From IMG/VR virus record IMGVR_UViG_3300044984_002785: a stretch of 64,000 nucleotides of DNA; one strand, written 5' to 3'. The stretch's first letter is position 1. Every line of letters starts with the position of its first letter. The translations under genes were made by a program, and so were the position numbers. Positions 33,004 through 34,793 of the stretch are shown piece by piece. This stretch comes from a virus. Taxonomy: Duplodnaviria > Heunggongvirae > Uroviricota > Caudoviricetes > Demerecviridae. The notes below the pieces were generated by a model that did no database searches, was not told the origin of the DNA, and saw nothing but the letters and a program-made list of their open reading frames with translations.

Positions 33004-33954
33004 ATGAACAAAATCACACAATTCTTAGACTCAGCTTCAGCCGCATATTATGCTGGTAGCCCTTTTATCACTGACGTTCAGTTTGATAAATTGGCTGACT
33101 CAGTAGGTTATTATGCTGTTGGTGCTAAACAAAATTCCAAAACTCAGAAACATCTTTATCAGATGTACTCACTACAAAAATTCTATGAAGATGAAGGCAC
33201 TAAGCCTCTTCAAGGAATTCGAGGTATTGCCACTAGTATTAAGCTGGATGGCGCAGCTCTCAGCTTACTTTATGTTGATGGTAATCTTGTTCGAGCTCTC
33301 ACCCGTGGTGATGGCACAGAAGGTCAGATTGTAACAGATAAGTTTATTGGTAACCCAATAGTTCCACAAACAGTACCTTTTCAAGGTGTTTACCAAATTA
33401 CTGGTGAGATTGTTGCTCCACTTAATATTGAAAATTCCCGTAACTATGCAGCAGGTTCACTAAACTTAAAAGACCCCCAAGAGTTTCATCAACGTGCGCT
33501 AACTTTCTTTGCTTATGGAGTTCAACCTACTCTGCATGACACATTTAATGCAGATTTAAACGCACTTCGTCTAGCTGGTTTCGGTGTTATCAATGAACCA
33601 GACTTGGACAAAATCTTTCCTTGCGATGGCGTAGTATTCCGTGTTAATGACAATGCCCAGTTCTACGAAATGGGCTACACAGCTAAACATCCTCGTGGTG
33701 CTTATGCTAAAAAAGAACGAGCACAGCACGTTGAAACAAAACTATTAGGAGTTGAGTGGCAAGTTGGCAAATCAGGTAAAGTATCCCCAGTTGGTATTCT
33801 AGAACCTGTTTACATCGGTGATGCTCTCATCAGCCGAGCAACACTCAATAATCCAGGATTTATTGAAATGCTAGACCTACAAATTGGTGATACTGTAGCC
33901 ATTATCAGAGCCGGTGAGATTATTCCTTGTATTTTACATAAAGTGGATGCTTAA
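33004..33954 (+). CDS. ligA: NAD-dependent DNA ligase, N-terminal part (adenylation + OB domains)
   Basis: [32 protein letters not shown] matches the LigA KxDG adenylation motif; the gene stops before the Zn/HhH/BRCT domains. Confidence 0.6.
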   Translation: [316 protein letters not shown]

Positions 33955-33971
33955 GCAGTAAAAATTTACAC

Positions 33972-34000
33972 TTGTCAAAGAGCACTCAATCAGTTATAAT
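33972..34000 (+). promoter_or_regulatory. sigma70-type promoter TTGTCA-N17-TATAAT inside the split ligase
   Basis: Lies in the 71-nt gap between the two ligase ORFs. Confidence 0.45.
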
Positions 34001-34025
34001 ATAGTCTACAAAGTGATAAAACAAC

Positions 34026-34793
34026 ATGAAGATCGAAATCCCAACAACCTGCCCCTGCTGTGCATACAAATTAGAATTGGTCAATGATCAACTATTTTGT
34101 CGCAATACAGCTTGCGGTGCTCAGCTTACAAAAAAAGTTGAACACTTCTGCAAGACTCTAGGCATCAAAGGTATGGGGCCTCGCTCAGTTGAAAAACTTG
34201 ACTTACAAGATCTAACCGAGTTATTTTATCTTGACTTAGATACTGTTACCGAAGCATTGGGTAGTGAAAAAACTGCCACAAAACTGCTTGATGAAATCGA
34301 ACGAGCTAAGACAGTAGATTTAGCTACAGTTTTGGCTAGTTTCAGTATAACACTTGTAGGCGCTACAGCATCACAAAAGATTTGTAGCGTAGTAGATCAT
34401 ATTGATGAAATCTCTTATGATACTTGTAAACAAGCAGGTCTAGGCGATAAAGTTACAGAAAACTTAGTTGGCTGGTTACAGACAGATTTCCCTGATTTAA
34501 AAGAGTTTTTGCCGTTCTCTTTTAAGTCCAATAGAAATTCCATAACAAATAGTAACAATAATTCAAAGACTATTTGTATCACTGGAAAGCTATCTTCATT
34601 CAAAACTAAATCAGAAGCCTACAAAGCTCTAGAAGAGGCAGGTTTCAAAGTTACGGAAACAGTAACTAAAGCCACTGATATATTAGTTGATGAAGAAGAT
34701 AGAGCTAGTACAAAACGCAAAAAAGCCGAATCCCTCGGAATACCTATAATCACAAACTTAAAAACTTTCTTGAAAGAAACAAAAAATGACTGA
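34026..34793 (+). CDS. ligA: NAD-dependent DNA ligase, C-terminal part (Zn-finger, HhH, BRCT)
   Basis: CPCCAYKLELVNDQLFCRNTACGAQ Zn-finger, TLGIKGMGPRSVEKL HhH, C-terminal BRCT-like ICITGKLSS...ATDILV. Confidence 0.55.
   Translation: MKIEIPTTCPCCAYKLELVNDQLFCRNTACGAQLTKKVEHFCKTLGIKGMGPRSVEKLDLQDLTELFYLDLDTVTEALGSEKTATKLLDEIERAKTVDLATVLASFSITLVGATASQKICSVVDHIDEISYDTCKQAGLGDKVTENLVGWLQTDFPDLKEFLPFSFKSNRNSITNSNNNSKTICITGKLSSFKTKSEAYKALEEAGFKVTETVTKATDILVDEEDRASTKRKKAESLGIPIITNLKTFLKETKND

Follow-up and report, generated by a model that had tools for sequence, protein, structure and literature searches.

A split nicotinamide adenine dinucleotide (NAD+)-dependent DNA ligase, composed of subunits A and B, has been known in bacteriophage T5 since 2005 and is already described in the literature (PMC3632103, PMC4319617, PMC1684257). 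In the T5 genome (NC_005859), the 'NAD-dependent DNA ligase subunits A and B' are encoded by T5.116 (ligA, 323 amino acids) and T5.117 (ligB, 259 amino acids), which are separated by a 202-nt gap carrying two annotated promoters, 'P-K 28b' and 'P-K 28a', and ligB (66538-67317) overlaps the D5 gene (67310-68077) by 8 nt. A two-chain enzyme is also found in the PDB, where entries 9hu3 and 9i5i comprise one chain named 'DNA ligase (NAD(+))', of 339 residues, and another named 'DNA ligase subunit B', of 248 residues. Here we analysed a 64-kb stretch of viral DNA (IMG/VR record IMGVR_UViG_3300044984_002785, hereafter called the window), in which an NAD+-dependent DNA ligase is encoded in two pieces, ligA and ligB. 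This pair is very probably a T5-type two-subunit NAD+-dependent DNA ligase of an uncultured T5-like phage. The feature is therefore a known T5-type split ligase with a known internal early promoter, met here as a new instance from an uncultured clade.

In the window, ligA lies on the + strand at 33004-33954 (316 amino acids, ATG start, TAA stop) and would encode the catalytic subunit, made of domain Ia, a nucleotidyltransferase (adenylation) domain and an OB fold. ligB, on the same strand at 34026-34793 (255 amino acids), would encode the DNA-binding subunit, with a Cys4 Zn finger, four HhH motifs and a BRCT domain. Between them lies a non-coding spacer of 71 nt (33955-34025, +). An initial annotation of this DNA had given the same open reading frame (ORF) boundaries, the same TAA stop and the same gap, all of them exact, and the LigA core peptide that it had read in the first ORF (KLDG...TRGDGTEGQ) is indeed present there; the KLDG belongs to the KxDG motif of ligA, whose lysine K80 (codon 33241-33243, +) is the predicted acceptor of adenosine monophosphate. 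The distance from the ligA start to the ligB end, 1790 nt, is the shortest seen, the isolates spanning 1885-2859 nt as a result of longer gaps or small inserted ORFs. The reading frames of ligA and ligB differ and stop codons occur in all three frames of the gap, three of them in the ligB frame, so that fusion of the two ORFs by any single insertion or deletion is impossible.

The window and T5 have in common the split in the OB/Zn linker, the gene order of the replication module, a σ70-type promoter directly upstream of ligB and the 8-nt overlap of ligB with D5. They share only about 40% amino-acid identity and differ in the gap, which is 71 nt long with one promoter in the window, whereas that of T5 measures 202 nt and carries a tandem pair of promoters spaced by about 93 nt; an extended -10 promoter located 7 nt from the ligA ATG in the window is a further difference. 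The best structural matches are the two chains of a single PDB entry, 9hu3_A for ligA (residues 6-315, E 1.8e-60) and 9hu3_B for ligB (residues 1-250, E 7e-39). When chain B of 9hu3/9i5i was reconstructed from the alignment (244 of its 248 residues), it was 100% identical over this stretch to the ligB of the Providencia phages vB_PreS_PR1 and PSTCR5, and these entries thus appear to hold the two-chain enzyme of a T5-like Providencia phage, belonging to a different phage genus from the window and roughly 40% identical to its ligase.

The initial annotation had placed a LigA adenylation/OB core in the first ORF and Zn-finger, HhH and BRCT modules in the second, and had named paralogues covering the same LigA region as the alternative to complementary halves. 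Both domain assignments hold. ligA matched Pfam PF01653 (DNA_ligase_aden; E 3.5e-28, 99 bits against a cut-off of 27) and, over residues 244-314, PF03120 (DNA_ligase_OB; E 5e-24), and its OB region aligns to the OB domains of Thermus filiformis and Escherichia coli LigA. ligB matched the Pfam BRCT domain (E 1.4e-7). Searches against solved structures aligned ligA residues 201-313 with E. coli LigA residues 278-390, and ligB residues 3-244 with residues 402-662 of the same enzyme (PDB 2owo). On the fused phage LigA family phrog_3869 (656 positions), ligA covers positions 9-381 and ligB positions 388-654 with no overlap, which rules out the paralogue alternative and indicates that the halves are complementary. 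Furthermore, each half is a full-length member of its own subunit family, as ligA residues 1-315 match positions 1-324 of the 325 of phrog_3359 (E 4.8e-96) and ligB residues 1-254 match positions 1-255 of the 256 of phrog_3498 (E 2.9e-69).

To the same effect, a MAFFT alignment of the window proteins with E. coli LigA and with the ligases of T5, Akh-2, D239, phi3 and PVo5 puts the end of ligA at about E. coli residue 399 and the start of ligB at about residue 400, the 'LSERPEDTR' linker alone being absent. The break falls in one and the same OB/Zn linker (E. coli residues ~391-400) in the window and in all five phages. In this alignment, K80-L-D-G of the window stands opposite K115-L-D-G of E. 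coli, and ligA has equivalents of E. coli E173, R200 and K314 as well as the domain Ia motif AYY..P.I(S/T)D..(F/Y)D.L, which aligns with E. coli YLYHVMDAPEIPDAEYDRL (Y22=Y, H23=Y, D32=D, Y35=F and D36=D). The corresponding residues of E. coli domain Ia (Y22, H23, D32, Y35 and D36) bind nicotinamide mononucleotide (NMN) and confer specificity for NAD+. The four Zn cysteines of ligB (C9, C12, C25 and C30) are all present, together with G-h-G motifs at the four HhH positions and the TGxL motif of the BRCT domain. The single-chain enzymes, namely E. coli LigA (2owo) and the fused phage LigA (phrog_3869; jumbo phages and the cyanophage MaMV-DH01), match the window pair in their six modules, in module order and in catalytic motifs. 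They form one polypeptide, whereas the T5-type enzyme is without the linker (E. coli ~391-399), carries deletions in the Ia and nucleotidyltransferase domains and has an Arg in place of K290.

We propose that the split severed an ancestral single-chain LigA exactly within the flexible linker between OB fold and Zn finger, at the cost of about nine linker residues only. The A subunit would handle NAD+ and NMN through domain Ia and would self-adenylate with NAD+ at Lys80, while the B subunit would bind the duplex on either side of the nick through its Zn/HhH DNA-binding arc and its BRCT domain. The two subunits would associate non-covalently around nicked DNA, where they would join Okazaki fragments and close the nicks that characterise T5-like genomes. 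A truncated LigN that retains only the Ia, adenylation and OB domains still self-adenylates (PMC1684257), which fits this division of labour.

Self-adenylation of such a core without the C-terminal half could also mean that A alone is a minimal ligase and that B, coupled to D5, serves as an independent DNA-binding or recruitment factor. The promoter that ligB has of its own and its 8-nt overlap with D5 would suit a separation of functions of this kind, as would the minimal ligases without extra DNA-binding domains that are described in two reports (PMC6144786, PMC4220977). We nevertheless regard it as improbable, given that all T5-like genomes and loci examined have ligA and ligB next to each other in this order and that both chains occur together in two PDB entries. 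In addition, as is well established, LigA of E. coli and Thermus depends on its HhH and Zn domains for efficient nick binding and sealing.

Introns and inteins are common in phage replication genes, and on these general grounds a group I intron, a split intein, a programmed frameshift or read-through could reunite the halves at the RNA or protein level to give a single-chain ligase. The gap and its flanks make this very unlikely. Seventy-one nucleotides are too short for a group I or group II intron, and the Rfam scan of the whole window detected no family in or near the ligA-ligB gap; an intron or riboswitch there was dropped as a candidate. The end of A and the start of B are flush with the OB and Zn domains and carry no extra intein halves of ~100 and 35 amino acids, and a split intein was rejected as no additional residues stand at the cut ends. 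Recoding or frameshifting was likewise rejected, the multiple stops in all frames excluding it. A conserved promoter is moreover lodged in the gap, and in the PDB the homologue consists of two distinct chains (339 and 248 residues). Neither a terminator nor an ORF was found in the 71 nt. The statement of the initial annotation that the gap is free of homing endonuclease and intron-like structures is correct for the window, although some relatives do carry endonuclease genes at this place (see below).

The promoter that the initial annotation had noticed in the gap was recovered at 33972-34000 (+). It reads TTGTCA-N17-TATAAT, matches 11 of the 12 consensus positions and has an AAATTT stretch just upstream; the predicted transcription start of ligB lies near 34007. 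On the + strand of the window, 12 promoter-like sites reach at least 11/12 matches, compared to 1.3 +/- 1.1 in order-1 Markov shuffles, and the chance expectation for such a site in 71 nt is about 0.0014. These sites lie at 7957, 8193, 12319, 14285, 15823, 22139, 27237, 27740, 30964, 33972, 38161 and 47674; nearly all have a 17-nt spacer and five are perfect TTGACA-17-TATAAT. Such an excess on the coding strand is expected for a phage that uses strong host-type promoters. The site at 30964 falls within an ORF (30842-31468).

Comparison with relatives supports this promoter. Among 54 distinct sequences upstream of ligB, TATAAT is invariant (54/54), and the CTTG of the -35 region and the upstream AAATTT are at least 90% conserved, whereas most spacer positions are conserved at only 40-60%. 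Scoring of 51 distinct short gaps gave a spacer of constant length (17 nt) and variable sequence, with the -10 element 24-26 nt away from the ATG. Since synonymous sites are near saturation, this pattern amounts to the phylogenetic footprint of a functional σ70 promoter in front of ligB. Two promoter-like sites are present in each of the longer gaps of T5 (locus 4387-4508), Aeromonas phage Akh-2 (locus 3991-4113) and Vibrio phage D239 (locus 2844-2965), 93-94 nt apart, and the window and its clade seem to have kept only the proximal one, in the position of the T5 early promoter P-K28a. The spacing of 93-94 nt is maintained in T5, Akh-2 and D239 despite a protein identity of about 40%.

Upstream of ligA, a second promoter-like site is located at 32968-32996 (+), with TTGTAT (32968-32973), a 17-nt spacer, a TG at 32988-32989 and TATAAT (32991-32996). 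Its -35 element matches the consensus at 3 of 6 positions only, for which reason the consensus scan did not list it. The pattern CTTGnnn...CTGnTATAAT (extended -10)-N7-ATG is conserved upstream of ligA in the window and in about 30 distinct relatives. A start 7 nt after the -10 element would be the A of the ATG, and a leaderless or near-leaderless ligA mRNA is thus predicted, which we consider a modest new lead, not a discovery. Other sub-clades have a 26-nt leader before ligA (loci L068 and L070). By contrast, no ligA promoter is present in loci L079-L089 and in Salmonella phage vB_SenS-AKM_ECS, where the upstream ORF abuts ligA, so a promoter of its own does not seem to be a family constant for ligA. 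The description of the two genes as separately promoted in the initial annotation is therefore supported for ligB, by the comparative footprint and by the P-K28b and P-K28a promoters annotated in the matching T5 gap, and for ligA applies to the window and not to the whole family.

Downstream of ligB, a D5-like gene for a DNA-binding or transcription regulator (34786-35535, +; phrog_323 'D5-like', E 6e-39) overlaps the ligB end by 8 nt, just as its T5 counterpart does. Transcription together with ligB and translational coupling to it are presumed. Twenty nucleotides after the D5 stop, an intrinsic-terminator-like hairpin (35555-35584, +) combines a 13-bp stem with a T run; a terminator is annotated at the matching place after D5 in Salmonella phage vB_SenS-AKM_ECS, and the hairpin is likely the end of the ligA/ligB-D5 transcription unit. 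Expression of the two-subunit ligase would then start from two σ70-type early promoters, one directly before ligA and one in the gap before ligB. Because no terminator separates them, ligB and the overlapping D5 would be transcribed from both, up to 35555-35584, and the likely unit would consist of promoter, ligB, D5 and terminator, supplemented by read-through from upstream.

How old the split is bears directly on the other possibility raised in the initial annotation, a recently disrupted gene. A tblastn search was run with the concatenated A and B proteins, and rows were sampled down the whole ranking, giving about 42 T5-like isolates. Every sampled T5-like genome (~80-126 kb) matches the query in two pieces, whereas jumbo phages, a cyanophage and gut phage contigs give a single-piece match at no more than 30% identity. 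A scan of IMG/VR with the ligB protein returned 80 loci at 63-90% identity; all 80 are split, with ligA upstream of ligB, and the gap is short (66-89 nt) in 73 loci and long (811-832 nt) in the remaining seven. No internal stop was found in 77 A and 81 B sequences. Pairwise ratios of nonsynonymous to synonymous substitution (dN/dS) against the window were 0.05-0.12 for ligA and 0.07-0.16 for ligB, at dS values of 0.8-2.2, and both halves are thus under strong purifying selection.

A single-chain ligA recently broken by a nonsense or indel mutation, with halves now decaying, would account for a normally single gene appearing as two ORFs, and for nothing more. The evidence, including the comparison of fused and split forms in related phages that the initial annotation had proposed, runs against it: the break is shared by T5 and by Aeromonas, Vibrio and Providencia phages at only ~40-47% identity, as well as by all the metagenomic relatives; dN/dS is low in both halves at near-saturated dS; and ligB has its own conserved Met and promoter. 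This explanation is refuted, and we give it next to no credence. A frameshift error of sequencing or assembly that splits one ORF, a possibility in the abstract only, is just as negligible, since the 71-nt gap holds stops in three frames, only linker residues are missing relative to E. coli LigA, an identical A protein is found on three independent contigs from three samples (two of which extend downstream, where an ORF starts at the ligB position, 71 nt past the ligA stop), and the architecture is common to about 1000 isolate genomes (as counted by protein matches, the layout being sampled in ~42).

Taken together, the complementarity of the halves, the conserved split, the low dN/dS and the two-chain PDB homologue support the functional two-subunit ligase that the initial annotation had offered as its first reading. 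Several points weigh against it. The Zn-finger and HhH domains of ligB gave no Pfam match at E<0.01. In all T5-like A subunits aligned, an Arg occupies the position of E. coli Lys290 (motif DGVV[IF]K/R), and E. coli residues ~47-66 (the end of domain Ia) and ~175-190 are deleted; because of these changes, the kinetics may differ from those of the cellular enzyme. The cut ends of both subunits display no obvious extra interaction module or extension in the MAFFT alignment, and the mode of subunit association therefore appears to be left unexplained by the sequences. Our literature search found no paper describing the 9hu3/9i5i structures, whose productive complex is inferred from shared deposition alone. 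The promoters consist of consensus matches and a conservation footprint, with predicted starts only. Finally, both halves look functional, the enzymatic activity and stoichiometry of the window pair being themselves inferred.

The ligA-ligB junction turned out to accept foreign genes in several relatives of the window. Each of the seven long gaps (loci L018, L020, L021, L046-L048 and L058) holds one ORF of 226-231 amino acids that starts with M..GIY.L....KVY(I/V)GQS, and these ORFs encode GIY-YIG endonucleases with a NUMOD-like or helix-turn-helix tail. They fall into three divergent variants; two of these share 69.5% identity, and the third lineage is only about 30% identical to either. Two variants matched Pfam PF01541 with 24.4 and 28.4 bits (cut-off 22.6), and the one left, at 20.9 bits, is 69.5% identical to a passing one. 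A further GIY-YIG ORF fills the ligase gap of Salmonella phage vB_Sen_SG_WM_RUS_R2 (L007, 1465-2106); in BLASTP comparison with the other GIY-YIG proteins, it had no significant similarity beyond the N-terminal catalytic motif. A tblastn search with the endonucleases of the relatives found no match anywhere in the window.

Comparison of loci with and without an endonuclease gene locates the insertion. Relative to the endonuclease-free locus L016, L020 carries a cassette of about 740 nt placed exactly at the ligA stop codon. The cassette supplies a promoter-like site (TTGGAC-17-TATAAT) and a ribosome-binding site (GAGG), and the ligB promoter stays intact. The identity between L020 and L016 is 98.2% in the ligA body, 77.8% in the last 54 nt of ligA and 100% in the first 54 nt of ligB. 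Similarly, L058 and the endonuclease-free L053 are 89.4%, 66.7% and 96.3% identical over the same three segments. In both pairs the drop in flank identity is thus confined to the last 54 nt of ligA. L048, which also carries the endonuclease, has no close endonuclease-free relative, and its flank comparison is uninformative. In T4-type phages, local divergence beside a free-standing endonuclease gene results from target-site immunity or co-conversion. The divergence at the 3' end of ligA has the appearance of an endonuclease target site or co-conversion tract and, since localised divergence beside a free-standing endonuclease gene fits target-site immunity or co-conversion, the ligA/ligB junction is probably a recurrent homing site. 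We regard this recurrent GIY-YIG occupancy with target-site-like divergence as a modest new lead, not as a discovery.

It is tempting to go one step further and to suppose, tentatively, that the junction is a live homing site, that the split itself arose by insertion of a GIY-YIG gene into the OB/Zn linker and was later fixed, and that the promoter or promoters of ligB-D5 are a remnant of the cassette or were recruited through it. We hold this to be possible and rather doubtful, and the present data do not decide whether the split originated by endonuclease insertion. A precedent is reportedly provided by nrdA/mobE of phage Aeh1, in which a homing endonuclease is said to have created a working 'genes-in-pieces' enzyme (a case attributed to Friedrich et al., 2007). 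In both systems an essential phage enzyme of DNA metabolism is produced from two adjacent ORFs and a free-standing homing endonuclease gene sits at the junction in some genomes. They differ in that the Aeh1 insertion is lineage-specific, whereas the split state of the ligase is fixed throughout an entire phage family and the window lacks the endonuclease gene. According to Crona et al. (2011, PMC3045599), the Aeh1 fragments assemble via a sequence of mobile-element origin; unlike in Aeh1, no mobile-element-derived extension is visible at the cut ends in the window.

The gaps of the Vibrio phages contain other ORFs, of 98 amino acids in D239 (L003, 2551-2847), of 73 and 190 amino acids in phi3, and of 77 and 75 amino acids in PVo5; further coordinates of this Vibrio cargo are 1462-2294 in L006 and 1470-2461 in L008. 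By PHROGs, the 73-amino-acid ORF belongs to phrog_13916 (labelled 'DNA ligase'), a DprA-like protein to phrog_768 (in PVo5 as a C-terminal fragment only), and the rest are of unknown function. No Pfam endonuclease domain was found in the Vibrio gap ORFs. They show that the gap accepts cargo and are silent on the origin of the split.

Given that the split ligase has counted as a hallmark of T5-like phages ever since the T5 genome was published, and that a two-chain structure is in the PDB, it carries little weight as a discovery, and the value of the present check is to keep it from being counted as new. What the window adds is that the split persists unchanged in a large uncultured T5-like clade whose identity to any isolate is at most 40-47%. 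With its gap promoter among the best-footprinted elements of the locus, this ligase would be a clean case from nature of an enzyme in which the dose of each half can be set independently, and the repeated occupancy of the junction by GIY-YIG genes suggests a testable route from an essential single-chain enzyme to a two-subunit one. For enzyme engineering, the naturally occurring split pairs mark E. coli residues ~391-400 as a place where LigA tolerates a cut.

As regards the phage itself, a megablast search of the locus against GenBank phages gave no match, because the phage is too divergent at the DNA level. Both proteins matched about 950-1200 phage records, all at no more than 47% identity and mostly from T5-like phages of Vibrio, Salmonella, Escherichia, Klebsiella and Aeromonas. 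The window thus derives from a distant, uncultured T5-like (Demerecviridae-like) phage. The genes around the ligase are arranged as in the T5 replication module, in the order D2-like, PC4-like regulator (phrog_4053), ligA, ligB, D5-like (phrog_323), DnaB-like helicase, primase and DNA polymerase. Within this replication block, between the D2-like gene and ligA, a gene at 31623-32423 (+) encodes a Band_7/SPFH-type protein with a lipoprotein-like N-terminus (Pfam Band_7; phrog_200 'lipoprotein').

Outside this block, a transfer-messenger RNA (tmRNA) is encoded at 25262-25680 (+), with an Rfam beta_tmRNA score of 99.6 bits (gathering score 84). The tmRNA_permuted family scored 108 bits at 25311-25612, and ARAGORN predicted a permuted tmRNA with the tag ANDQTYALAA; the betaproteobacterial type of this tmRNA may hint at the host. 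The window also contains 24 tRNA genes between 11634 and 28784, all on the + strand and scattered among small ORFs, as in T5-like phages. Two of these tRNAs are unusually long, namely tRNA-Ile(tat) at 15305-15396 (92 nt) and tRNA-Tyr at 22190-22282 (93 nt).

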